A stretch of DNA of 64,000 nt. Origin: an uncultured Candidatus Saccharibacteria bacterium (GTDB lineage Bacteria > Patescibacteriota > Minisyncoccia > Minisyncoccales > Staskawiczbacteraceae). Location of the stretch: contig CAYZNK010000002.1 of the NCBI GenBank assembly GCA_964479955.1, positions 71,489 to 135,488 on the forward strand. The letters run 5' to 3'. Below the pieces are notes generated by a model, which saw nothing but the letters and a program-made list of their open reading frames with translations, was not told the DNA's origin and did not search any database. Below are positions 4,382 to 58,455 of this stretch, piece after piece; the stretch's first letter is position 1; each line of letters begins with the position of its first letter. A program made the position numbers and the translations under genes.

Positions 4382-4452
4382 TGCGGGATCGTCTAATGGT
4401 AGGACATCGCCCTCTGGAGGCGAGTATCTTGGTTCGAATCCAAGTCCCGCAG
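4382..4452 (+). tRNA. tRNA-Gln(CUG)
   Basis: Acceptor tgcggga/tcccgca, anticodon arm tcgcc-ctCTGga-ggcga, T arm cttgg-ttcgaat-ccaag. 71 nt. Confidence 0.85.
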
Positions 4453-4454
4453 CA

Positions 4455-4619
4455 TTAGCAATCTTCAATATCTTTAGATATTGAAGATTGGTATTGTTAA
4501 GGCGGACTTTGTATGAGAACCAAGCCCCCGAATTGCGCCGAGCCAACAGGGAACCCCGCCACAGCGGGGCGAGGCGGCAATGCTTTCGAGAACTGCCTTC
4601 GAATCCAAGTCCCGCAGCA
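4455..4619 (+). repeat. tRNA-3'-end-associated hairpin element (copy at tRNA-Gln)
   Basis: Parts in order: a 15-bp AT palindrome (4459-4490), an inverted diverged copy of the tRNA-Gln 3' part, cccccgaattg, the hairpin cgaggc-ggcaat-gctttcg, then an exact 22-nt direct copy of the tRNA 3' end (4598-4619 = 4433-4454). Confidence 0.75.
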
Positions 4620-4739
4620 GTTTGAGTAAATTTTTAGGCGTTGCTAAATGCCTTAAAATTTACTCTTATAACAGCGGATTTTGTATAATAACCTTTAAAA
4701 TGGTTGAGTATATAATATTTCTATAGCGCGTTTTACTTT

Positions 4740-5985: not shown

Positions 5986-6897
5986 ATGGCTTATTGGCTG
6001 ATTGTTATAATAATAGCGTATTTCTTTTTTGCTCTGTCTGCTCTTGGGGATAAGCTTGTTTTGGCTGGCCCCGCAAACCCCAAGGCATATGTGTTTTATG
6101 TTGGGTTATTGAGCATACTGGCTGTTTTTTTGATTCCGTTCGTTGGAATTAAAATTCCCACAACGGGCATGTTTTTTCTGATTGCACTTGATGCAATTAT
6201 TTTTTATATTGCTTTGTATTTTGGGTTTGTGGCAGTTGAAAAATTTGAGATTTCAAGGGTTGCTGTAACAATAGGGGCAACCCAGCCCATATTTATATTT
6301 TTTGTTTCATGGATTTTTTGGGGGTACCAGGGAATTGGATTTTTGGGATTTTTGGCGTTTATTTTTTTGTTTTTAGGAAGCATTATTGTTTCTTTTGACA
6401 AGAAGCTGGAATTTAAAAACAAATACCTGGCGCTTACTCTTTTTGCATCATTGATGTATTCTTTTGATTATTTGATGTCAAAATACATTTTTGAATATTT
6501 TTCCTTTTGGCACGGAATAATATTCAAAAGCGTATTTTTATTTTTAATTTCCATTAGCTTAATTTTAATAAAAAAGAACAGGCAGGAAATCTTAAAGAAA
6601 AATAAAAATTCAGAAAAACAGAAATCATTTGGCAAGTTATTTTTAGCAACGCAGGCATGCGGGGCAGGGGCTAATGTTTTGCAGAGTTTTGCTATTTTTC
6701 TAACGCCGGTGGGATTTTTGCCGGTTTTAAATTCATTAAGGGGATTGCAATATATTTTCTTGTTTACATTTACTTTGTTTATAACGCGTTTTTTCCCTAA
6801 AATCCTCAAAGAAAAAATTTCAAAGAAAACAATAACCAGAAAGGCATTTTCCATTCTTTTAATTATTCTTGGCCTGACGGCTTTGATTTTTTGCTAA
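5986..6897 (+). CDS. polytopic membrane protein, DMT/EamA-like
   Basis: 303 aa with about 10 hydrophobic helices. The family call is tentative. Confidence 0.45.
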   Translation: MAYWLIVIIIAYFFFALSALGDKLVLAGPANPKAYVFYVGLLSILAVFLIPFVGIKIPTTGMFFLIALDAIIFYIALYFGFVAVEKFEISRVAVTIGATQPIFIFFVSWIFWGYQGIGFLGFLAFIFLFLGSIIVSFDKKLEFKNKYLALTLFASLMYSFDYLMSKYIFEYFSFWHGIIFKSVFLFLISISLILIKKNRQEILKKNKNSEKQKSFGKLFLATQACGAGANVLQSFAIFLTPVGFLPVLNSLRGLQYIFLFTFTLFITRFFPKILKEKISKKTITRKAFSILLIILGLTALIFC

Positions 6898-6954
6898 ATA
6901 TTGACTTTAAGTGATTTTTTTATTAACCTATTATTAATCTAAACAAATTGAGCA

Positions 6955-7134
6955 AGCGTGCTTTTCCGGGGTGGCTTGGCAGATTCTTACCCCTTGACAT
7001 GCCAGAAGGTTAGGACCCTCCAAATTTTCCTGACTTTCTTTTGCCAGCCACCCTTTTGTTCTTTAAGGTTCCGCCCTTGGGCGGGTCCATCTTGCCCCGG
7101 GCCGCTGTGTCTTTATGACCCAGCGGCCTTTTTT
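6955..7134 (+). ncRNA. candidate structured small RNA, class unknown
   Basis: GC-rich island in an AT-rich spacer. Contains the helix ggggtggcttggcag/ctgccagccaccc and the hairpin ccgccc-ttg-ggcgg. Terminator is ggccgctg...cagcggcc plus T6 (7099-7134). Confidence 0.45.
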
Positions 7135-7179
7135 GATGAAATCTGAAAAATCTCACAGATTTGATTTACAGACAAGGGA

Positions 7180-7207
7180 TTGACAATCTTTTTTGTTTTG
7201 GTATGAT
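7180..7207 (+). promoter_or_regulatory. sigma70-type promoter
   Basis: TTGACA, 16-nt spacer, TATGAT. Confidence 0.55.
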
Positions 7208-7213
7208 TAAGAT

Positions 7214-7362
7214 AAACATCCTTGTGGGTGTGCTGGCGAACGGCGCTTGGAGCCCTTGCGCAGCCCTAGGCAAGGGCTCCTCTTTGCACTTTTATATTTC
7301 CTAATCATTCCGCTTTGAGCGGATTGCGTTCATTCTGGGGGTGCTGAAAAGTTCAGTACCCC
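7214..7362 (+). ncRNA. candidate structured small RNA, class unknown
   Basis: Lies downstream of the promoter above. Hairpins ggagcccttgc...gcaagggctcc and ccgc-tttga-gcgg. Strong terminator gggggtgctgaa-aa-gttcagtaccccc plus T-run. Confidence 0.5.
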
Positions 7363-7406
7363 CTATTTTTTTATAAAAAAAAGAAATAAAATAAAACTTT
7401 TATCAG

Positions 7407-7435
7407 TTGACCAACCTATATTTTTTTGTTAAAAT
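7407..7435 (+). promoter_or_regulatory. sigma70-type promoter of the tRNA-Ile locus
   Basis: TTGACC, 17-nt spacer, TAAAAT. Confidence 0.5.
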
Positions 7436-7455
7436 TTAAACAGGTTTTGTTGCTT

Positions 7456-7482
7456 GGGCATTAATTCAGTGGTAGAACGCTG
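7456..7482 (+). pseudogene. tRNA-Ile 5' fragment (positions about 1-28)
   Basis: gggcattaattcagtggtagaacgctg versus the gene's gggcgattagttcagtggtagaacgctg (1 indel, 1 mismatch). Confidence 0.7.
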
Positions 7483-7502
7483 AACTGGTTAGTGGAAATG
7501 GT

Positions 7503-7577
7503 GGGCGATTAGTTCAGTGGTAGAACGCTGTCCTGATAAGACAGAGGTCAAAGGTCCGATTCCTTTATCGCCCACCA
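7503..7577 (+). tRNA. tRNA-Ile(GAU), CCA encoded
   Basis: Acceptor gggcgat/atcgccc, anticodon arm ctgtc-ctGATaa-gacag, T arm aaagg-tccgatt-ccttt. 75 nt. Confidence 0.85.
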
Positions 7578-7622
7578 TTTCCACTAAAAGCGCACATATA
7601 AAAAATAAATAAAAAAGCTTTG

Positions 7623-7663
7623 TAAGACAGAGGCCAAAAGTCCGATTCCTTTATCGCCCACCA
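7623..7663 (+). pseudogene. tRNA-Ile 3' fragment (positions about 37-76 including CCA)
   Basis: taagacagaggccaaaagtccgattcctttatcgcccacca has 2 mismatches to 7537-7577. Confidence 0.75.
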
Positions 7664-7688
7664 AAGTTTTAAAAAACAAAACAAAAAT

Positions 7689-8033
7689 ATGAACAAAAAA
7701 AATCTTATAATATTATTAGCTGTTTTGGTTTTAGTATTGATTGTGGGGTTATTTTTGTTTAAAACTTTTGAAAACAATAATTCTGGAGTTGAAAATTCAC
7801 TTGGCGGAGCCAATACAGAATCTTTAAATAATGAAGATGAAAATCAAAATGAGACAACGCCGCAAATACAGGTAGAAGCAGAAGGACAAACGGGTCAGGG
7901 GGAGCTTCTTATTTGCGTTGACGAGTGCGGAAACGGGATTTGCCAAGAGCCTGCCCCGGATTGCGGAGAAGATGGAACTTATAACTGCGTATGCCCGGAA
8001 AATCCAGAGATTTGTCCGCAGGATTGTAATTAA
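7689..8033 (+). CDS. secreted or anchored small protein with a Cys-rich C-terminal module
   Basis: 114 aa with a signal/anchor. There are 9 Cys in the last 40 residues (CVDECGNGICQ...CPENPEICPQDCN). A terminator follows at 8040-8062. Confidence 0.65.
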   Translation: MNKKNLIILLAVLVLVLIVGLFLFKTFENNNSGVENSLGGANTESLNNEDENQNETTPQIQVEAEGQTGQGELLICVDECGNGICQEPAPDCGEDGTYNCVCPENPEICPQDCN

Positions 8034-29592: not shown

Positions 29593-30459
29593 TTATTTCG
29601 GCTTTTCTTCTTTTGATATCTGGAAAGCTTTTATAACCGGTTCTAAATCTCCGTCAACTATTTTTTCCAAATTATGCCAGCTTTTGTTTATTCTGTGGTC
29701 TGTAATTCTGTTTTGAGGATAGTTATATGTTCTTATTTTTTCTGACCGTTTCGCCCAGCCAATTTGTTCTCTTCTTTCTATGGTTAATTTTGATAAATCA
29801 GCTTCTTCTTGTTTCCTTAATAGCCTGGCAGAGAGTAAAGACAAAGCCGTTTCTTTATTCTGCATTTGGTTCCTTTCTGATTGACAGGTAACAACAAGGC
29901 CTGTTGGCTTATGGACAATTCTTACAGCTGACTCTGTTTTGTTTACATATTGTCCGCCGGGACCTGAAGCTTTGTAAGTTGAAATTTCCAGATCAGAAGG
30001 GGAGATATTCACTTCGGTTTTTTGGGGTTTTAACAAAACCGCAACAGTTGCGGTTGAGGTGTGAACCCTGCCTTGCTTTTCTGTTCTGGGGATTCTCTGA
30101 ACCCTATGGACACCGCCTTCATTTTGCAATTCATCATAAGTTCCATTACCTGATAATTCAAAAATAATTTCTTTATATCCGCCTATCGTTGACTGATTGG
30201 AATCCAAAATTCTTTCTTTCCACCCTTTTTTTTGTCCGTATTTAGAGTACATTCTATATAAGTCAGCTGCAAAAAGACCGGCTTCATCTCCTCCTGTGCC
30301 TGCACGTATTTCAATAATCGCTGACTGCTTTTCTCCGGATTCAAAATTAGCGGACATCAAGTCTCCGTTGTTTTTCATTTGTTCTCCGTAGTTTTTCCAA
30401 TCTTCTGCTGTAAACTTTGAAAAATCTGGTTGTTCCATTTTATTCATAAATATTATCAC
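29593..30459 (-). CDS. prfA: peptide chain release factor 1, N-terminally short
   Basis: GGQ motif and RIPRTEKQGRVHTS (PxT position). Only 288 aa, and the AGTGGDEAGLF motif sits at about residue 55. Confidence 0.8.
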   Translation of the reverse strand: MIIFMNKMEQPDFSKFTAEDWKNYGEQMKNNGDLMSANFESGEKQSAIIEIRAGTGGDEAGLFAADLYRMYSKYGQKKGWKERILDSNQSTIGGYKEIIFELSGNGTYDELQNEGGVHRVQRIPRTEKQGRVHTSTATVAVLLKPQKTEVNISPSDLEISTYKASGPGGQYVNKTESAVRIVHKPTGLVVTCQSERNQMQNKETALSLLSARLLRKQEEADLSKLTIERREQIGWAKRSEKIRTYNYPQNRITDHRINKSWHNLEKIVDGDLEPVIKAFQISKEEKPK

Positions 30460-35713: not shown

Positions 35714-36094
35714 ACATATATAACAATTAAAAACATAAAGACAAAATCACTATATATTCTTCCCGTCATTGCGGGATCCCCCGCTAAGCGGGGGAAAAAC
35801 TAAACAGCGTTTTAAGAATATCCGTGAAGGCAGGTTTTAAAGGTCTGTCTTCACGGGTATTTTTTCTTCTTGGCTGAACGGAAAGCCTTTTGATAATTGA
35901 ATAATGGAAACCAGTTTTAAAAACTGGGAAAAAATTGAATTAGCGGAGTGTCCACAGTACTGAAAATTTCTACGAAAATTTTAGCGCTGAGAGAATTCAC
36001 TTCGTGTAATTCGTTTCTTAAAGTTGTTTCGAATCAAAGCTTGTCGAGTGCTTAACTCGACAGTAGTTTATTCTAACTAGAGTAATCAACTTTT

Positions 36095-37556
36095 TTTTGA
36101 GAGTTTGATCCTAGCTCAGGGTGAACGCTGGTAACGTGGATACCGGCATGCAAGTCGAGCGGACCGCAAGGTCAGCGGCGAACGGCATAGTAACACGTGG
36201 GTACAAACCCTTTTCTCGGGTATAGCCAGCCGAAAGGTTGGGTAATTCCCGATAGTTCTCGCAAGAGTAAAGTCGCAAGACGGAAAAGGATTGGCCCGCG
36301 GCCTATCAGATTGTTGGCAGGGTAACGGCCTACCAAGTCTATGACGGGTAGGGGGCGTGAGAGCGCGACCCCCATGAATGGCACTGCGACACGGGCCATA
36401 CTCCTACGGGAGGCTGCAGTCGAGAATCTTCCGCAATGGGCGAAAGCCTGACGGAGCGACGTTACGTGAATGAAGAAGCCCTTCGGGGTGTAAAGTTCTT
36501 TTATGTGGGAATAAGTTATTGAAGGTACCACATGAATAAGAGGATCCTAATTCTGTGCCAGCAGGAGCGGTAATACAGAATCCTCAAGCGTTACCCGGAT
36601 TTATTGGGCGTAAAGGGTCCGTAGGTGGTAAAGTAAGTTTTGAGTTAAACCTCATCGGCTTAACCTTTGAGCTATTCAAAATACTGCTTTACTTGAGGGC
36701 GTTATGGGTGAACGGAACCGACGGAGTAGGGGTGAAATCCGTTGATATCGTCGGGAACACCAAAAGCGAAGGCAGTTCACTGGGGCGACCCTGACACTGA
36801 GGGACGAAAGCGTGGGTAGCAAAAAGGATTAGATACCCTTGTAGTCCACGCCGTAAATGATGAATACTAGCTATTGGCAGTGTCGACCCTGCCAGTGGCG
36901 AAGCTAACGCGTTAAGTATTCCGCCTAGGAAGTACGGTGGCAACACTAAAACTCAAAGGAATAGACGGGGACTCACACAAGCGGTGGACCATGTGGCTTA
37001 ATTCGACAACAAACGAAGAACCTTACCAGGTCTAGAAATCTGCATGAAAGCCTTCAGAAACGTTGGCCCTTCACAAGACATGCAGACAGGTGCTGCATGG
37101 TTGTCGTCAGTTCGTGTCTTGAGACGTACCGTTAATTCGGGTAACGAACGCAACCCTTGCCGTGTGTTTTAAATGTCACACGGGACTGCCCGAGATAATT
37201 GGGAGGAAGGCGAGGATGACGCCAAATCAGCATGGCCCTTTGATGACCTGGGCCGCACACGTGGTACAATGGCCGGTACAATGGGTTTCGATGCCGCAAG
37301 GCGGAGATTAATCTCATCAAAACCGGTCTCAGTTCGGATTGAGGGCTGAAACCCGCCCTCATGAAGCTGGAATCGCTAGTAATCGCCAATCAGCTATGTG
37401 GCGATGAATACGTTCCTGAGTCTTGTACTCACCGCCCGTCAAGCCAAGCGAGCTGGGGATAGCCGAAGTGCCCGCAAGGGCCCTAAGCTAGATTCAGTAA
37501 GAGGGGCTAAGTCGTAACAAGGCACGGCTAGCGGAAGCTGGTCGTAGATCATTTTT
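36095..37556 (+). rRNA. rrs: 16S rRNA (stand-alone; no linked tRNA or 23S)
   Basis: Starts near gagagtttgatcctagctcag and ends ...aagtcgtaacaaggcacggctagcggaagctggtcgtagatcattttttt. Flanked by a processing stem (36013-36036 pairs with 37690-37713) and a terminator at about 37762-37790. Confidence 0.9.
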
Positions 37557-37840
37557 TTAAAATTTTGTATAGAAACCTTTTGGTTTATATACAAAATGGA
37601 ATGTAGTCGGCTCAGAGTGATTCGATAAACTCAGTTCGATGAGTATATCGAATTGTTCTGAAGCATTTTAGCAGATTTGCTTGAAAATCGCATTCGAAAC
37701 AACTTTAAGAAACTAATTTTTCCACAGAAAAATTATCCTGAGATTTTCGAAGGGTAAGACATTACTCCGTCAAAAGCGGAGTTTTGTTTTGATTAAGGTT
37801 GTTCTTGAAAATTAGTTGGAAAAGAATTAAGCTATCTTAT

Positions 37841-39600: not shown

Positions 39601-39696
39601 CTGGTGGACCCGGGGAGGAGTTGCCCGAAGGCATTGCTGTCGCCTTCGGCGCCACAATTCGGGGGGATTCTCCCCGCGCCACTAAATAAAATTTAG
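39601..39696 (-). repeat. tRNA-3'-end-associated hairpin element (copy at tRNA-Ala)
   Basis: Minus-strand order: AT palindrome actaaat-aaa-atttagt, inverted copy ggcgcggggagaatc, ccccccgaattg, hairpin gaaggc-gacagcaat-gccttc, then a direct copy ctccccgggtccac plus CA. 39604-39617 is identical to 39696-39709. Confidence 0.7.
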
Positions 39697-43120: not shown

Positions 43121-43187
43121 TTTTTTTATTGCAATTTTATAAAATAAAAGTTAAATTAAATAAATTGAAATATGAGCTTATCAATTC
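43121..43187 (+). repeat. duplicated copy of the ychF promoter and first 5 codons (decayed copy)
   Basis: About 65 nt with 4 mismatches to 43669-43733. It reads ATGAGCTTATCAATT and then diverges to a stop. Confidence 0.8.
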
Positions 43188-43370
43188 AGCTTTGTGATTA
43201 AAATCCTACCGCGGAGATATGAAAAAATTATAACAAGTCGAGACGAATAGGAAAGAATCGTTCATTTAATATTGGTTTGATAGGGTGATGCTTGGTTGAC
43301 ATTAGCGATTTCAAGTGATAAAGTTTTAATTGGCTCTTCTTAACTCTAAACAAGAAAGGAAAGGTGAGTC

Positions 43371-43610
43371 ATGGCAAATAAAATGCCAACAGTTTATCAA
43401 CTTATACCGCCACTCGCGGTAAGAATGACCCAAGAAGTTCACATCGGAATGGGCCCTGAAGGATTTTCCCTCAAAAAGCACGAACGAGGAATTGCTTCTG
43501 GTACTCTCGGATTTTGCACAATCGAAGGGAGACCCAGATTGGGATTCCAGGTCACTTTCGCGGGTTTGGACTTTGTTCTTCCACAAGAGTTCATAGAGCT
43601 CGTTCCGTAA
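43371..43610 (+). CDS. orphan small protein (GC-richer cassette)
   Basis: 79 aa with aggaaaggtgag just before the ATG. Promoter TTGACA-17-TAAAGT at 43296-43324. Terminator ggggtggctgaacagtcaccc plus T-run. Confidence 0.6.
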   Translation: MANKMPTVYQLIPPLAVRMTQEVHIGMGPEGFSLKKHERGIASGTLGFCTIEGRPRLGFQVTFAGLDFVLPQEFIELVP

Positions 43611-43668
43611 TAAAGTGAATCTCAATCCTTCCATGGTTTGTGCCTATGGGGTGGCTGAACAGTCACCC

Positions 43669-43733
43669 TTTTTTATTGCAATTTTGTGAAATAAAAGTTA
43701 AATTAAATGAATTGAAATATGAGTTTATCAATT
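43669..43733 (+). repeat. native copy of the duplicated ychF 5' region
   Basis: See 43121-43187. Confidence 0.8.
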
Positions 43734-45235: not shown

Positions 45236-45370
45236 AACCCTATCACCAATTTCAGCCAAGTTAAAAGGTAAGATATACTTTGAAGGCGAAGTGCCTTCGG
45301 CTGTTAATTTTGTAATATAAAGTCAGCGGTGAAATTGGTGAGGGGTTATTGCGACGGTAAGGTATAAATC
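45236..45370. repeat. hairpin-core element, copy A
   Basis: About 80% identical by eye to 57591-57732. Terminal inverted repeat is aaccctatcaccaatttc / gaaattggtgaggggtt, and the inner hairpin is gaagg-cgaagtg-ccttc. Confidence 0.75.
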
Positions 45371-45499
45371 CTTCGACTTCGCTCAGGCCTTCGGCTCTGA
45401 TAGTCTCGGACTCGAAGAGATATTTTCTGCGGAAAATAAAAGCCCTGCAAACCGTAGAAGAGCAGTGAGCAGGGCATAAAGAAGGATGAATCCGACGGA

Positions 45500-45823
45500 T
45501 TATTCAACGTATCCGCAAGAGTTTTCAATGGAGTAGTAAAGAGTGATTTCTGCACCCTCCTTGATCTTTTCGTGACAGAATTCTCCTTTGCAAGATAATC
45601 CTTTTATCCTGCAGACCAATTTGAAAAGCTGGAATTTGGTTTCGTCAAAGACGATAGACATCACCTCTGCTGAAATGGCAGTTGACTTCTCCTGATAAGA
45701 CAGGAAGAAAACAGGAAGATTTCCGGGACGCCTTTTAATGAGGGCTTCCCATAAGGGTAGGTTGGTTGGACCGTCTTTGACCAAGATTTTTTCCGTTTCT
45801 ATTTCCAATGCGGCGTTACTCAT
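45500..45823 (-). CDS. orphan hypothetical protein (GC-richer cassette)
   Basis: 107 aa with agggaga 5 nt before the ATG. Terminator gccctgc...gcagggc plus T-run at 45440-45478 (minus strand). Confidence 0.65.
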   Translation of the reverse strand: MSNAALEIETEKILVKDGPTNLPLWEALIKRRPGNLPVFFLSYQEKSTAISAEVMSIVFDETKFQLFKLVCRIKGLSCKGEFCHEKIKEGAEITLYYSIENSCGYVE

Positions 45824-48374: not shown

Positions 48375-49020
48375 ATAATTACATGATGAAAAAACAAACC
48401 AATAAATTTAACAAAACAAGCGGATGATTGTCTGACTTTTTGTGTTAGTAGATGACCGCTTGAATAAGCGGTTTTAAATTTATTGAAAATCAGTTTGCCG
48501 GCGATTGAAAATATAAATTGTTTTCAGCCGCGGGTTAATTGATTGAAGCGGAAGCAAAGATTGCTTTTTGAAAATTTAACCCTGTTAAATGTTTTAAATA
48601 ACAAATTGCCTACCAGCAATTTTTAACAGGTTCTTCCCAATTAATTTTAGACATGGGGTCTTTTTAATTGGGGAAAGTAGGTAAGTCCTGTTAAAATTTT
48701 AACAGGATAAAGCATAAAATTAAGTTCACATTTGCGTTGATGATTCAGCGCAAAAAAGTAAACTTACGCAAAAAGATAAGCTTAACAATTAAGTTTATCG
48801 AAGGATAGGTTATAAGCGAATGGCGGATGCCTTGGGATATTGATGCGATGAAGGACGTGGCGTGCCTGCGATAAGCATCGGGGAGGTGGCTAGCAACCTT
48901 TGATCCGGTGATTTCCGAATGGGAAAACCTTATTGTGTTAATCCACAATAACCCCGCCTTGGCGGGGAGCGTACCCGGTGAAGTGAAACATCTCAGTAGC
49001 CGGAGGAAAAGAGAACAAAA

Positions 49021-49289
49021 GTCCTACAACTTACAAATTTTATCAATTTAGCGAAGCGAATTTTGAGACAAATTCGCGACGCGAGGAGCAGTGCGTGCCA
49101 AGTGGCACGAGAGCGACGAAGCAACAAAGAATTTGGCCAAAATTCGTTCGCCCGAAGGGAAACGAAAAAAATGGCTGATTTCTTTGTTGCAACTTCGTTA
49201 ACGTAGTTAACACTATGTTTCCTCGTTGCGCCTCGAAATCATCACATTTTTTCGTTTCTAAATATGACGAAATTTGTAAGTTGTAGGAC
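49021..49289 (+). other. 23S insertion sequence 1 (IVS-like), closed by a 20-bp perfect helix
   Basis: gtcctacaacttacaaattt (49021-40) pairs with aaatttgtaagttgtaggac (49270-89). It lies between GAGGAAAAGA and AGTAGTGGCGAGCGAA. Confidence 0.75.
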
Positions 49290-49346
49290 AAGTTATATCC
49301 TTAGTAGTGGCGAGCGAAAAGGATACAGCCTAAACTAATTTTTTTA

Positions 49347-49505
49347 CACCGCTACTTTTTGATAATTTTCGTAACGAAATAAAATAATTTTGCGCGAGAA
49401 TTTGGAAATGCAAGGAGGTTTGCCAAGTGGCAAGCCGACGAGCAGTTACAAATTTGTAGCCGAAATTATTAATTGCAGTAGAAAAGTTATCAGAAAGTAG
49501 CGGTG
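49347..49505 (+). other. 23S insertion sequence 2 (IVS-like), closed by a 19-bp helix
   Basis: caccgctactttttgataa pairs with ttatcagaaagtagcggtg (one G-U pair). It shares a gccaagtggca...cgacga.gca block with insertion 1. Confidence 0.7.
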
Positions 49506-49861
49506 AAATTAGGGTTGTAAGGTTGTAGCGTCAGGAGCGTTATTTATTCTTCGTATAGTCGAAGAACGAATAATGCTTGCTGAGAGAGAAAATTTAGATA
49601 AAGGTTTTAATAGAAGCACTCTGGAAAGAGGCGCCATAGAAGGTAATAGCCCTGTATATAAAAAAACTATTTATGCTCTTTGCTATGATACTTGAGTACT
49701 GTCGGGCATGATAACCTGGCAGGAATCTACCGGAACTATCCGGTAAGGCTAAATAATCAATATCACCGATAGTGAACCAGTACCGTGAGGGAAAGGTGAA
49801 AAGCAGGGGGTTGACCCCGATGAAATAGTACCTGAAACCATTTGCTTACAAAGAGTCGGAG

Positions 49862-49943
49862 GTCTTCACCTTTTGGGTGTTGAGTTTAATTGTGGAACAA
49901 AACAATTTCCACAAAAATAATTTGACCTTCAAAAGGTGAAGAC
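49862..49943 (+). other. 23S insertion sequence 3 in the helix-25 region
   Basis: gtcttcacctttt pairs with aaaaggtgaagac, a 13-bp perfect stem. Confidence 0.7.
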
Positions 49944-50586
49944 TGACGGCGTGCTTTTTGTAGAACGAGCCAACGAGTTTGAATAATCAATAGTCTAAGC
50001 CCTTACGGGGCGGAGGCACAGCGAAAGCGAGTGTTAAAAGCGCGAAAAATTATATTGGTTGTTCAAGACCCGAAGCCAGACGAGCTTACCGCGAGCAGGA
50101 TGAACCCGGGCGAAAGCCAGGGGGAGGTCCGAACCAGTGAGTCGTGCAATTCTCTTGGATGACTTGTGGTAAGGAGTGAAAAGCTAATCGAGTTTGGTAA
50201 TAGCTGGTTCTTCCCGAAACAGCTTTGGGGCTGGCGTGTACAAACTATTTTCCGGGGGTAGAGCACTGAATAGAATTCCGTGGAGTTTCTCCAGGTCTTC
50301 TAATCAAACTCCGAATACCGGAAAAACTATGTATGCAGTAAGAACGCGGGGGCTAAGCTCCGCGCTCAAAACGGAAACAGCCGAGATCATCGTCTAAGGT
50401 CCCTAAATTAGGCTAAGTGCTAAGAAGGAGGTATTTTACCCTTGACAGGCAGAAAGTTAGCTTAGAGGTAGCTATCTTTTAAAGAGTGTGTAACAACCCA
50501 CTGCCCAAACTTTCCCGCTTGCGGGAGAGAGGGGTGAGATGCGCCAAAGATTTCCGGGGCTAAAGTCTAATACCGAAGACATGGAT

Positions 50587-50712
50587 TCATTCGCATCACA
50601 CTGCGTGTGATGTTAAATGACCAAAAACCAAAAACCAAAAATATTTAATATTTTGGGATTTGAGAATTGGAATTTGGGAATTTAAGCATCGTGCGAAGCG
50701 CGATGCGAGTGA
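50587..50712 (+). other. 23S insertion sequence 4 in the helix-45 region
   Basis: tcattcgcatc pairs with gatgcgagtga. It contains a CA-repeat / UG-repeat hairpin (50621-50683). Confidence 0.65.
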
Positions 50713-51003
50713 GTGGTAGGGAAGCATTCTGAGGGCATTGAAGCAGGAGGGTAACCGACTGTGGAGCGCTCAGAAGAGAGAATGTTGGCCTGAGTAACCG
50801 CATTGCGCGTGAAAGCCGCGCACACCGAAAGTCCAAGGTTTCCTTGGCAATGGTATTCAACCAAGGGTTAGGCGGTCCTAAGGCAAACCTGAAAGGGGTA
50901 GCTGACGGACAGTTGGTTAATATTCCAACCCTTTTTTATCCGTTCAATAAAGTGCGGAATTTAGTAGGTAAAGCGATTTATTGGATTATCGTTGTTAGTC
51001 AGA

Positions 51004-51030
51004 CCTGTCTGCCGTCAGGCAGGCGCAAGA
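51004..51030 (+). repeat. CCTGYCTG...CAGGCAGG palindromic element, copy inside 23S
   Basis: cctgtctg-ccgt-caggcagg-cgcaaga. Confidence 0.6.
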
Positions 51031-51420
51031 ATGGCTAACGGAAGGTCTCTTTATGGGGCTGACTTTACTGAGCAAGTTTCCAAGAAAAGCTTTATTTAAA
51101 TAGGATAAAGAAACCGTACCGTAAACCGACACAGGTGGACAAGCGTAAGTATGCTAAGGTGAACGGGTGAAACCTCGTTAAGGAACTCGGCAAATCAGTG
51201 GCCGTAAGTTCGCAATATGGCCTGCCCGACACGCAAGTGTTTAGGGCTGCAACAAACGTACTTCAACCGACTGTTTATCAAAAACACAGCTCTCTGCTAA
51301 CTCGTAAGAGGATGTATAGGGGGTGAGGCCTGACCAGTGTTGGAATGTTAAGTTTGGGGGTCCAAGCCGCAAGGTTTGGGCTCACTGAATGAAGCACCAA
51401 TGAACGTCGGCGATAACTAT

Positions 51421-52151
51421 AGACTGACGATTGTAGTTATAAAATTTGGCTATATGCTGGAAACTCCGGGTATGTTGAACTACTATCCGTTACTATGATA
51501 AAATATATAGTAATGGAAGTAAAAATGTTTAAACGCGGACAATCAGCAGGAAAGACTTTTGACGAGAAACTCGCTAACTACTTGAGCGGTTTTACTGATG
51601 GCGAAGGAAGCTTCAATATTTCAGTAATTAATCGTGAGAAAGACTATAAACACGGCTGGAAAATCAGCTTGTGTTTCAATATTTCTCAAAAAGATGACAC
51701 AATACCAAGATTATTTAAGGATTTTCTTGATTGCGGTAAAATAAGATACCGCAAAGATGGAATTTGTTATTTTGATGTTAGAAAAACAAAAGATTTAACA
51801 AATATTGTTGTGCCATTCTTTAAAAAATTTCCAGTGCGTTCAAAGAAAAATGAAACTTTTCAGATTTTTTGTGAGGCGTTGGAGATTGTTAAATGTAAAA
51901 AACATTTAACAAAATCCGGAATGAAAAAAATTCTGGATTTGAGAAATAAAATTGTAGTTGGCAGAAAAAGAAAGTATACAAATTCAGAGATACTTTCTAC
52001 TTATAATCAAAAGAATCCTCAGAGACTATACGCCAAACCCCGCTTAGCGGGGAAGATATAGTCCGACCTGCATAGCGATATGCAGAATATAATAGAAATA
52101 TTATATCAAGATACTAAAACTGACTTAATTTAGTATTAGTAACATAAAAAG
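51421..52151 (+). mobile_element. group I intron in the helix-69 loop (after the U equivalent to E. coli U1917)
   Basis: The exon ends ...gataactaT and resumes aatcgtccaaaggtagcg. Intron guide gtagttat (51433-40) pairs with the 8 exon nt ataactat via G-U at the splice site. The intron ends in G and has the core motif aagatatagtccgacc. Confidence 0.8.
51495..52061 (+). CDS. LAGLIDADG homing endonuclease (intron-encoded)
   Basis: YLSGFTDGEGSFNISV motif. The ORF lies inside intron 1 and ends within the core motif. Confidence 0.8.
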   Translation: MIKYIVMEVKMFKRGQSAGKTFDEKLANYLSGFTDGEGSFNISVINREKDYKHGWKISLCFNISQKDDTIPRLFKDFLDCGKIRYRKDGICYFDVRKTKDLTNIVVPFFKKFPVRSKKNETFQIFCEALEIVKCKKHLTKSGMKKILDLRNKIVVGRKRKYTNSEILSTYNQKNPQRLYAKPRLAGKI

Positions 52152-52815
52152 AATCGTCCAAAGGTAGCGTAATCCCTTGCCGGGTAAGTTCCGGCCCGCA
52201 TGAATGGCTTAACGAGTTGAAGACTGTCTCAACGAGGTGCCCGGTGAAAATGCAATAGCAGTGAAGATGCTGCTTACCTGCGGCTAGACGGGAAGACCCC
52301 GGAAGCTTTACTGTAGTTTGATATTGGGTTATGGTTTTTAATGCGTAGCGTAGTGGGGAGGATATGAAACGGCATTTTCGGATGTCGCGGATCCGCCAAT
52401 GAAACACCCATCTTTGGGAATTATAATTCTAATCCACGCCTCAACGGCGGGTGACAGTGTTAAACGGGCAGTTTAAGTGGGGCACTTGCCTCCTAAAAAG
52501 TAATGGAGGCGTTTAAAGGTCAGCTAGCTTCGGATGGAAATCGAAGCGATAGTGTAAAGGCAAAAGCTGGCTTTACTGCAAGACGGCTATGTCACGCAGT
52601 TGCGAAAGCAGAACTTAGTGAACCGACTTGTTTTTATAGAAAACAAGAAGATCATCAGCCAAAAGCTACTCCGGGGATAACAGGCTGGTAGAGCCCGAGC
52701 GTCCATAGCGACGGCTCTGTTCGGCACCTCGATGTCGGCTCAACTTATCCTGGGGCTGGAGCAGGTCCCAAGGGTCCGGCTGTTCGCCGGTTAAAAAGTT
52801 ACGCGAGCTGGGTTC

Positions 52816-52846
<31 letters not shown>

Positions 52847-52884
52847 ACCGCAGGCGTTGAGTTTTGAGGAGATTTGTTCCTAGT

Positions 52885-53667
52885 AAAATTTTGCTACTTC
52901 GTAAAGTAATTTACGATGACAATTCGGCTAATAACGGTGAAACCTTAAAAGTTATGGTTCGTTGATAATCATTATTGAATTCGGTCCAATAATAATGGTA
53001 CAATTAACTTGAGGACCAATAATAATTTAAGGCAATACCGTGGGAAGTCAATCTAAAATAAATTTATCATATATAGCAGGTTTTCTGGACGGAGATGGCA
53101 GTCTTATGTTTCAAATAAAGAAGCGCAAAGATTGCAAATTAAAAAGTAGATTTATGGCAACTGTTTGTTTTTACCAAGACGGTCGCCACGAAAAACCACT
53201 TTTTTGGATCAAAAGAATTCTCGGTATCGGTTTTATTTCCCGTCGTAAAGATGGAATGACCGAACTGAGAATAAATGGCTTTAAACAAGTAAAAGAAATT
53301 TTGCAAAAGTTAATGCCGTTCATTAGATTTAAAAGAGAACAGGCAAAAGCCCTTTATGGAGCTGTTAGTCTTTTAAATCAAAAAGAAACAAGGTTATTAG
53401 ACAAAAAAGATTTACTAAAATTAGTGAATTTTATAATAACCATCCAAAAAAATAATTACATCGCCAGAAAAAAGAAAACCAAAGCAGATATTTTTAAAAT
53501 TTTAGGTCTGACCCCGTAACGACTGATCCTGAGTCCTGAGTTTATTGAAGGACGAAGGAGAGATAGAAGTGAGATATCTTCTATAACATGCCGACTCCCC
53601 AATTCGCCAGTTGGCGAAAGGGAGAAGATATAGTCTATGCACGTGGTGACACGTGGTTTAAAACATG
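52885..53667 (+). mobile_element. group I intron inside the sarcin-ricin loop (after the U equivalent to E. coli U2656)
   Basis: The exon reads ...ttcctagT | intron | ACGAGAGGACCGG. Guide gcta (52893-96) pairs with exon tagt via G-U. The intron ends in G and has the core motif agaagatatagtc. Confidence 0.7.
53040..53519 (+). CDS. LAGLIDADG homing endonuclease (intron-encoded)
   Basis: YIAGFLDGDGSLMFQI motif. 159 aa with a GTG start, inside intron 2. Confidence 0.8.
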   Translation: MGSQSKINLSYIAGFLDGDGSLMFQIKKRKDCKLKSRFMATVCFYQDGRHEKPLFWIKRILGIGFISRRKDGMTELRINGFKQVKEILQKLMPFIRFKREQAKALYGAVSLLNQKETRLLDKKDLLKLVNFIITIQKNNYIARKKKTKADIFKILGLTP

Positions 53668-53985: not shown

Positions 53986-54098
53986 CCGGTGGCGACTATG
54001 CTGGAGTTGTCCCACCTGATCCCATTCCGAACTCAGAAGTGAAATACTCTAAGGCCGATGGTAGCGCTTATGCGCGAGAGTAGGTAGTTGCCACCAGA
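53986..54098 (+). rRNA. rrf: 5S rRNA
   Basis: ccggtggcgactatgc...cccattccgaactcagaagtgaaa...gtaggtagttgccaccag. Confidence 0.85.
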
Positions 54099-57503: not shown

Positions 57504-57533
57504 CCTGCCTGCCGGTAGGCAGGTACGACAAAA
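57504..57533 (+). repeat. CCTGCCTG...AGGCAGG palindromic element, intergenic copy
   Basis: cctgcct-gccggt-aggcagg-tacgacaaaa. Confidence 0.65.
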
Positions 57534-57590
57534 TAGTCATTGCGGTTTCTGACACCGCAATGACTATTTTTATTTGCAGCAGATAAAATA

Positions 57591-57732
57591 AACCCCATCA
57601 CCAATTTCATTCAAATAAAAGGTAAGACATAGTTTTGAAAGGCGAAGCGCTTTCGGCTGTCAGTGTTGCGATACAAAGTCAGTGGTAAAATTGGTGAGGG
57701 GTTTTGCGGCGGTAAATGTAATTATCCGCCGC
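57591..57732. repeat. hairpin-core element, copy B
   Basis: Terminal inverted repeat aaccccatcaccaatttc / aaaattggtgaggggtt and inner hairpin gaaag-gcgaagcg-ctttc. Homologous to 45236-45370. Confidence 0.75.
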
Positions 57733-58449
57733 AAAAAAAAGAGCGCCGTGCTATGCTCTTCCCAGTGCCGCCTTATGGAATTGGGCGGGGATTTTTTAAG
57801 GGTGAGCGATAAACACGGCGCAAAATGCAGCAAAGCCTCATTTTCGAGAGCTCGTAGGGATAGGGTTTTCCACCATAACAGGTACCGTCCCCGTAGCCCA
57901 ACATCACTGCATTTGAATGATAGACTGACAGGAGGCCCGCTTGTGCACAACAACGGGCTTTTGTGTTTGCGTTCTTGCCGCAGGCAAACTCTTTACGGGC
58001 GGTACAATATTTCCGCCGGTTGAAGCTGTGCCACACTAAGTTGGCCAAATATCAAACCGTGTGGATGGGATGCCCCATTTGCTCTGCTCAACTGCGTCTA
58101 GGAGCATAATGGGATATTCTGGGCTGATCCTTCACTTCCGCTAGATCCCGCGAACTTAGTTGAGCTGAGTTGCGATACGCAAGGTAAGTGAAGGACTGCA
58201 TCAGCGCAGTAGAATTTTTCCAATTTCACGGTAGTCGCTATAGGATGCGAAATCCTGCCAACTCCCTGTCAGTCTTGTATGAAAAGTGCATGCGAGTTTC
58301 TTGCTTGGTCCTTTACAGGATGGGGAGAAACTCTATTTTTTGTTTTGCAACACTAGTCTGTACCCCAAAACTAGCGAAGATTCCAGCTGTCTTTTTTTCG
58401 AGGCATCTCCCGCCGGAATTTACGGAAATGCACGCTATTTTGAAAAGAT
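57733..58449 (-). ncRNA. candidate ~700-nt non-coding transcript, or a decayed cassette; class unknown
   Basis: GC-richer block with a minus-strand promoter at 58456-58484 and a weak stem plus U8 at 57733-57759. It has only overlapping 90-113 aa ORFs on both strands with non-protein-like sequences. Several long-range helices are present (for example tccttcactt / aagtgaagga). Confidence 0.4.
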
Positions 58450-58455
58450 GTTTTT

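Follow-up and report, generated by a model that had tools for sequence, protein, structure and literature searches.

A conserved hairpin-forming repeat family in Parcubacteria-type CPR bacteria, sited beside intrinsic terminators

Two long hairpins of similar sequence, element A (45236-45370) and element B (57591-57734), lie at gene 3' ends in the 64-kb stretch of DNA analysed here (the window). They raise the question of whether such a pair is mobile DNA, a structural module of the host, a recombination site, or a pair of ordinary terminators that happen to look alike. The window was examined together with ~220 kb of related loci (given L numbers below).

Elements A and B and their family

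The window is of low GC content (~35%) and belongs to the Patescibacteria (CPR); the nearest named relatives of its YchF and PBP2 are Candidatus Staskawiczbacteria. It contains six tRNA genes, and its rRNA genes are unlinked (16S at 36093-37559, 23S at 48803-52881 and 5S at 53988-54096), 16S standing 11 kb from 23S. Insertions of ~1.1 kb are present in the 23S gene, including a LAGLIDADG endonuclease ORF (51495-52061), and a second LAGLIDADG-like ORF lies between 23S and 5S (53040-53519). Two release-factor genes with PCRF and RF-1 domains (1594-2613, + strand; 29593-30459, - strand) have in common an inverted 53-nt stretch of 92% identity (2233-2285 and 29921-29973). A 65-nt direct repeat, 94% identical (43122-43186 and 43669-43733), copies the YchF promoter and first codons and brackets ~480 nt with a small GC-rich ORF (43371-43610) and its own terminator; this segment (43122-43733) has the look of a gene insertion with its target duplicated on either side.

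A and B were 83% identical over 128 nt (BLAST), with a mean column identity of 86%, close to the figure of about 80% in the first-pass annotation. That annotation had also described both as long hairpins with bulged terminal arms, and this description was borne out: folding on the + strand gave z = -6.9 for A and -4.4 for B against shuffled sequence, and the arms form a 16-bp stem interrupted by a single bulged A. In element A (+ strand) the 5' arm AACCCTATCACCAATTTCA (45236-45254), in which a C-to-T change leaves a U:G wobble opposite the 3' arm, is followed by the core (45286-45305: mini-hairpin GCGAAGT, mini-hairpin GCCTTCGGC, then CTGTT), the 3' arm AAATTGGTGAGGGGTT (45332-45347) and a second hairpin beginning ATTGCGACGG (45348-45432). 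Element B (+ strand) has the 5' arm AACCCCATCACCAATTTCA (57591-57609), the core (57642-57661: GCGAAGC, GCTTTCGGC with a U:G wobble, then CTGTC), the same 3' arm AAATTGGTGAGGGGTT (57688-57703) and, abutting it with no spacer, the second hairpin TTGCGGCGG-13 nt-CCGCCGCAA (57704-57734). The homology between A and B runs past the long hairpin into the second one (TTGCGRCGGTAA...), to ~45372 and 57734, so the unit extends beyond the arms. The second hairpin of A is split in the window by an extra hairpin insertion of ~58 nt (~45371-45428) that contains GCCTTCGGCT, and is intact in the orthologous L002 copy (6054-6088). Another small hairpin insertion (57523-57581) is a near-perfect 41-nt palindrome between TA...TA; this one and that at ~45371-45428 are missing from the orthologous copies in L024 and L002.

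Further copies were sought in genome and metagenome collections with the pattern ATCACCAATTT-N65-95-AAATTGGTGAGG, which demands 23 arm bases. Exact matches were found at seven loci in reference genomes (two in Staskawiczbacteria, three in Nomurabacteria and one MAG with two copies) and at 15 further loci in metagenomes. An nhmmer profile and a covariance model (R1) recovered all pattern-found copies and added copies with altered arms (L018 3880-3992, L013 10853-10964 and L023 10791-10933). At least 19 distinct copies were obtained from Staskawiczbacteria, Nomurabacteria and other Patescibacteria; as the collections were scanned with a single arm-dependent pattern, this number is a lower bound, and since most copies were found in that way the invariance of the arms partly reflects the method of discovery. 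Rfam searches of A, B, their flanks and 17 related loci, at the gathering score and at E <= 10, returned only rRNA and tRNA matches, viral contigs searched with the arm pattern and a core pattern gave no match, and in the literature on CPR repeats and MITEs and on terminator-targeting MITEs no account of these sequences was found. A and B belong to a so far undescribed family of hairpin-forming repeats, strongly conserved, non-coding and specific to Parcubacteria-type CPR bacteria.

The unit measures ~150-165 nt, of which the long hairpin takes 112-128 nt. On the + strand (F) the common plan is the 5' arm AACCCCATCACCAATTTCA, ~30 variable nt, the core, ~28 partly conserved nt and the 3' arm AAAATTGGTGAGGGGTT, followed without spacer by the second, AT-rich hairpin, then by an A-run and a GC-rich hairpin. 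The core reads GCGAAGYG-N-CTTCG-N'-CTGTC, with a 10-nt internal duplication in some copies. The 16-bp base of the long hairpin, AACCCC-A-TCACCAATTT / AAATTGGTGA-GGGGTT, is near-invariant, with AAC at the 5' base conserved in 16 of 18 copies and GTT at the 3' base in 17 of 18. The Nomurabacteria version lies in the rpsK-rpsD spacer, inside an operon and with no terminator; like the copy L023b, it keeps the arms and a second hairpin, but its interior is AT-rich and unstructured and has no core. Copy density is low (~1 per 30-50 kb), and copies within one genome are old, with diverged interiors and no recent near-identical pairs.

Paired structure and the strand that folds

When the family was aligned, a model consisting of the arms and two mini-hairpins was paired in 99% of cells, against only 30-54% in slid controls, and none of 500 shuffles reached the observed covariation score. 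Compensatory arm changes comprised UA->AU and UA->CG; in L013b both sides of two arm pairs had changed in these ways and the bulge was closed, and the same arm variant was present in L023b. The core pair N:N' was CG 10 times, GU four times, and AU and GC twice each. In the second hairpin at least eight different stem sequences were found, every one of them pairing (for example ATTTTAC/GTAAAAT, ATTTGAC/GTCAAAT, GTTTTGC/GCAAAAC and TTGCGGCGG/CCGCCGCAA). A single 6-bp core hairpin, GCGAAG/CTTCGN, was tried and performed worse than the two mini-hairpins (86% of cells paired, no covariation). The compensatory change first read between A and B (GAAGG/CCTTC against GAAAG/CTTTC) did not survive the wider alignment, in which that helix was paired in 51-58% of cells, no better than slid controls.

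All 11 one-sided changes produced G:U on the + (F) strand, and none produced C.A. Wobble pairs thus arise on the + strand only, so this is the strand under selection to fold. Folding energies agreed weakly (mean -36.7 kcal/mol for the + strand vs -34.7 for the - strand, p = 0.07); the wobble asymmetry is the more informative of the two for choosing the folded strand.

Triloop mini-hairpins with stems of 2-3 bp are weak in RNA. GCGNAGC forms an unusually stable DNA mini-hairpin (PMC13037366), of which the GCGAAGC of the family is an exact match, with the second triloop hairpin coming next. This motif is known for its physical chemistry in phage origins and synthetic DNA, not from a genomic repeat family. 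On both grounds, the folded single strand may be DNA.

Position beside terminators and occupancy in relatives

An intrinsic terminator on the opposite (R) strand, beside the second hairpin, was detected at 16 of 17 loci by one or other of two independent scripts; taken script by script the counts were 13/19 and 11/17, and three control combinations of flank and strand gave 2-5. In 10 of 11 cases the distance between the 3' arm and the start of the terminator's T-tract is 41-48 nt. The element always has one fixed direction relative to the terminator, the unit lies in the A/T tract at the terminator's foot, and in nearly all loci the neighbour on this side is transcribed toward the element. Beside A the terminator consists of an A-run and the GC hairpin GCCCTGC...GCAGGGC (45433-45475, - strand) and serves the minus-strand ORF 45500-45823; since it also occurs in relatives that are free of the element, it is target context and not a part of the repeat. 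Beside B an A-run and the hairpin AGAGC...GCTCT (57733-57759, - strand) form the terminator of a ~700-nt non-coding region (57760-58450).

The terminator-side neighbours are mutually unrelated, as genes and as DNA: a 107-aa ORF adjoins A and the ~700-nt non-coding region adjoins B, while the neighbour in L009 is an rRNA-tRNA operon, that in L007 a TIGR array, and those at other loci small GC-rich genes. The left neighbour may run in either direction. Element orientation relative to local GC skew was mixed, and replication-strand bias was rejected as a cause. A promoter belonging to the unit was likewise rejected: -10-like boxes often abut AACCCC, but there is no conserved -35 and the spacing does not suit a transcript that starts at the stem.

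Several of these flanks have features of their own. The terminator-side sequences (e.g. L013 350-950, L015, L017, L020 and L011) are GC-rich (0.43-0.56 vs ~0.35), hold unrelated small ORFs or are non-coding, and look foreign or structured. The region 57760-58450 (- strand), ~700 nt of ~50% GC with no conserved ORF and no Rfam match, has a sigma-70-like promoter (58484-58456), a terminator (57740-57759) and blocks conserved in L024, L028 and L029; it is possibly a large non-coding RNA of a new type. In L007 a 548-aa protein of the TIGR-Tas endonuclease family (6348-7994, - strand; NF052498, E = 3.9e-36), of a size like the published CsTasR, has downstream of it a textbook stem-loop tigRNA unit (6084-6139, - strand: stem, CGA, 9 nt, TG, loop, CGA, 9 nt, TG, stem), and the family copy sits directly beyond the array's terminator on the opposite strand.

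Comparison showed each of the two window copies to be missing from its site in close relatives, a polymorphism that the first-pass annotation had thought worth looking for. Site A is filled in L002 (YchF 84% identical) and empty in L003/L004 and L005, where gene order and terminator are kept and the gap is only ~70 nt. Site B is filled in L028 and L024. It is empty in L029 (PBP2 90% identical), where the PBP2 stop codon TAA directly abuts the A-run of the terminator (AAAAAAGAGCGCC...), and also in L030 and L031. The PBP2-identity tree ((W,L028),L024),L029, in which W is the window, is consistent with B having been gained once, though the empty sites may instead have arisen by deletion between A-runs. 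The left boundary of the unit is approximate, filled B alleles carrying ~38 extra nt on that side. No clear target-site duplication could be read, because both junctions are A-rich. In two orthologous pairs the arms had changed at 3 of 72 sites and the interiors at 28 of 114 (p = 2e-4), a difference that is suggestive only, since one of the pairs came from the arm-dependent pattern.

A scan of 56 window ORFs against Pfam found no transposase, integrase (intI included), Y1 or other HUH enzyme, other recombinase or reverse transcriptase; the ORFs were housekeeping genes, had no family match or encoded LAGLIDADG homing endonucleases. Candidate mobility enzymes were not seen beside the other family copies either, nor was an autonomous partner IS with family ends in the ~285 kb of sequence examined.

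Mobile repeat, host module and other readings

The reading that we prefer, held at roughly even probability, is that A and B represent a non-autonomous mobile repeat that seeks terminators and acts through a folded single strand. It draws on the dispersed copies, their clean presence or absence beside a pre-existing terminator, their single orientation, their invariant ends with free interiors, subfamilies with no core among them, and the strand-specific folding. The unit consists of two directly abutting hairpins, a long one with conserved bases and a short AT-rich one in which pairing is kept while the sequence varies; within the long hairpin, the 16-bp base and the triloop pair (GCGAAGY, G-N-C-TTC-G-N'-C, CTGTC) are conserved and the remainder is free. 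A trans-acting enzyme would recognise the folded single strand and insert the unit, its target being the T/A tract that adjoins a terminator hairpin. After insertion, the unit would supply a hairpin and a U-rich tract in the opposite direction, which may explain both why it is tolerated and why its stem is conserved.

Some of the evidence pulls the other way. The Nomurabacteria version, in an operon spacer with no terminator, speaks against mobility of this kind. A purely selfish element is disfavoured by the want of a partner enzyme in the sequence examined or of a readable duplication and by old copies with conserved arms; for the same reasons a role in the host remains a serious rival. Such an element would also not be expected to change more slowly in its arms than in its interior after insertion, a pattern that fits host function or gene conversion. 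A host structural module that does not move, acting in place as a conserved RNA (small RNA or 3'-UTR element) or as a hairpin bound by protein, is possible but doubtful; it might terminate or insulate on the + strand, back-to-back with the terminator of the neighbour, or offer a conserved CPR protein a site for binding or processing. Consistent with it are arms and core that are near-invariant across genera between interiors saturated with change, arms ~6 times slower than interiors in the orthologous pairs, wobble pairs confined to one strand, the slightly better folding of that strand, and a T-rich tract such as TTATTTTACTTTTTAT after the long stem in most copies, which is terminator-like for + strand transcripts. 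Yet the unit is dispensable at both loci, as the empty sites in close relatives show, and no conserved -35/-10 promoter stands at a constant distance upstream. In at least four solid loci (L009, L014, L017 and L023) the left neighbour is transcribed away, so that no + strand transcript is expected to enter the element. A 16-bp stem closing 80 nt would moreover be an unusual intrinsic terminator, and mini-hairpins of 2-3 bp are weak in RNA. The mobile and host-role readings appear compatible, as with REP/BIME, and need not exclude each other.

The remaining explanations assign the family to known classes or deny that it is one. That A and B are attC-like sites, solitary or in ORF-less cassettes, of a new CPR integron-like tyrosine-recombinase system is improbable. 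The likeness to attC pointed out in the first-pass annotation is fair as a structural analogy: the imperfect hairpin of 112-128 nt falls within the attC range (57-141 nt), AAC and GTT are conserved at the base of the stem, one base (a bulged A) is extrahelical, the centre is variable, and the unit stands 3' of a gene that reads toward it, the folded strand being that gene's bottom strand. Membership of the class does not follow. In attC, R'' (RYYYAAC) and R' (GTTRRRY) are mutually complementary, whereas the family has GTT followed by ATTT, TTGC or TTTT (R' = GTTATTT or GTTTTGC), and the bases outside AAC/GTT are not complementary. Neither intI nor a tyrosine recombinase is present in the window, and the obligatory second, abutting hairpin has no attC counterpart. 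An attC cassette moves with its ORF and is arrayed through intI/attI; the family copies are solitary among housekeeping genes, never arrayed, and at both polymorphic sites only the element is lacking, the gene next to it and that gene's terminator being still in place. Guide RNAs, whether stem-loop tigRNAs for a Tas protein or IS110-type bridge-like RNAs with the variable stretches as spacers, are very improbable. Stem-loop tigRNAs come from the same bacterial group and have a similar layout (terminal stem, variable stretch, small central stem, variable stretch, terminal stem), and the L007 copy adjoins the TasR-family gene. That is the only such case, and the link is by position only: the copy lies past the terminator of the array on the other strand, there is no Tas gene in the window, and neither L007 nor the flank of B has TIGR-like tandem arrays. 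When stems were scanned for pairs of box C, 9-10 nt and box D, the L007 unit at 6084-6139 was recovered and no family copy; tigRNA stems diverge where those of the family are invariant, the family interiors are longer (76 nt vs ~40 nt in the L007 unit), and the variable stretches match their own flanks or the window no more than controls do.

A similarly slim chance attaches to common ancestry with the elements linked to tRNA-Ala and tRNA-Gln, for example as tRNA-derived or tRNA-targeting sequences with one core hairpin. The core match on which the first-pass annotation based this connection is real as a string: GAAGGCGA...TGCCTTCGG is exact in A and the Ala-linked element, GAAGGCG-N-GCCTTCG occurs twice in the window (0.00 expected), and the relaxed AGGCG-N-GCYTTCG four times (0.13 expected). 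Relatedness was not upheld. The bases in common (GAAGG / CCTTCGG) differ among family copies, where they make up no conserved helix; the tRNA-linked elements lack the family invariants GCGAAG and CTGTC, and with E <= 10 allowed neither nhmmer nor the covariance model gave a match at 4572 or 39626. The window contains CTTCGG 29 times against 14 expected and GCCTTCGG four times, so such GC hairpins are common there; and the L009 copy that stands behind a tRNA has its core antisense to the tRNA, opposite to the tRNA-linked elements. On these sequence comparisons the resemblance is treated as convergence or chance. The likeness of the 5' arm to a tRNA 3' end with CCA found no tRNA to go with it, none ending in ...CCCCATCACCA being present in the window or the related loci examined. 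Least probable, to the point of being hardly credible, is that A and B themselves resemble each other by chance or are ordinary bidirectional terminators with no family identity. Their place at gene 3' ends, between A-rich and T-rich flanks, would suit it. Against it stand the at least 19 copies from different genera with 35 or more identical bases and a conserved core in common, and an arm 18-mer which, with up to three mismatches, matches the window four times, all at the places foreseen from A and B, where chance would give 0.12. Nor do the elements correspond to the simple terminators lacking a conserved core that the first-pass annotation had considered, since the core is conserved in relatives.

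The tRNA-linked sequences are of interest in themselves. The Ala-linked element is related to the Gln-linked one and is almost unchanged in L003. Directly after tRNA-Ala lies an 85-nt structured sequence (window 39602-39695, - strand; L003 2836-2924; z = -3.3) that ends in a copy of this tRNA's 3' end with encoded CCA, the tRNA gene itself having no CCA. It is near-identical in a relative whose proteins are only ~80% identical, and the sequence that follows tRNA-Gln (4515-4620) is related to it. Downstream of tRNA-Ile, tRNA-Gln and tRNA-Ala the 3' halves of tRNAs are partially duplicated (7623-7663 vs 7537-7577; 4598-4619 vs 4433-4454), and such duplications recur in relatives (L009 7450-7700; L017 5050-5170); they look like integration scars or tRNA-like minihelices.

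Close parallels among known systems are the MITEs and similar hairpin repeats (Correia elements, ERIC, RUP), which are likewise small, non-coding, dispersed in intergenic DNA and present or absent between relatives, and whose conserved inverted ends fold into a long hairpin, as do the 16-17-bp arms of the family (99% paired). MITE subfamilies may have unrelated interiors; the Nomurabacteria type and L023b, with arms and no core, are a parallel. At the family's A-rich junctions no target duplication is readable, and no cognate IS is known. Unlike in MITEs, the inverted repeats are not the very ends, as homology and the second hairpin continue past the 3' arm. The strictly fixed orientation by intrinsic terminators, the co-variation of the arms and their conservation after insertion, and the low copy number also set the family apart. 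REP/BIME sequences resemble it in lying after gene 3' ends, often between convergent genes, with conserved structure, and are regarded as enzyme-spread sequences that the host also puts to use. REP units measure 20-40 nt, are each self-palindromic, carry a GTAG motif and have a RAYT partner, none of which was seen in the family: its arms are not self-palindromic, GTAG is absent, and the window has no Y1 transposase. Group IIC introns, too, are found directly behind intrinsic terminators in a single relative orientation; in contrast to them, the family has no ribozyme domains (no Rfam match at E <= 10), is about ten times smaller (~150-165 nt) and folds on the strand antisense to the direction of the terminator.

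The abutting hairpins can also be read as a rod-shaped circle opened on one strand, between ...GTAAAAT and AACCCC. A more specific form of the mobile reading can be framed from this, in which the ~165-nt unit is a rod-shaped single-stranded circle that a candidate CPR enzyme pastes strand-specifically into the T/A tract at the foot of a terminator, reading the bulged stem and the GCGAAGC-type DNA mini-hairpins. We consider this form unlikely; if true, the family would represent mobile DNA of a new and very small kind.

The genomes of CPR/Patescibacteria are tiny, and repeats and mobile DNA are believed to be scarce in them. With the misleading tie to tRNA-associated sequences removed, those sequences merit separate study. 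The family is easily modelled (covariance model R1), may be used as a marker for recent insertion or loss in metagenome-assembled genomes, and offers a natural test case for the biological role of GCGNAGC DNA mini-hairpins as well as an entry point toward the partner protein. A conserved, structured, polymorphic and terminator-specific family that extends over several candidate genera suggests an unrecognised cis element in these bacteria and, probably, an unrecognised enzyme.
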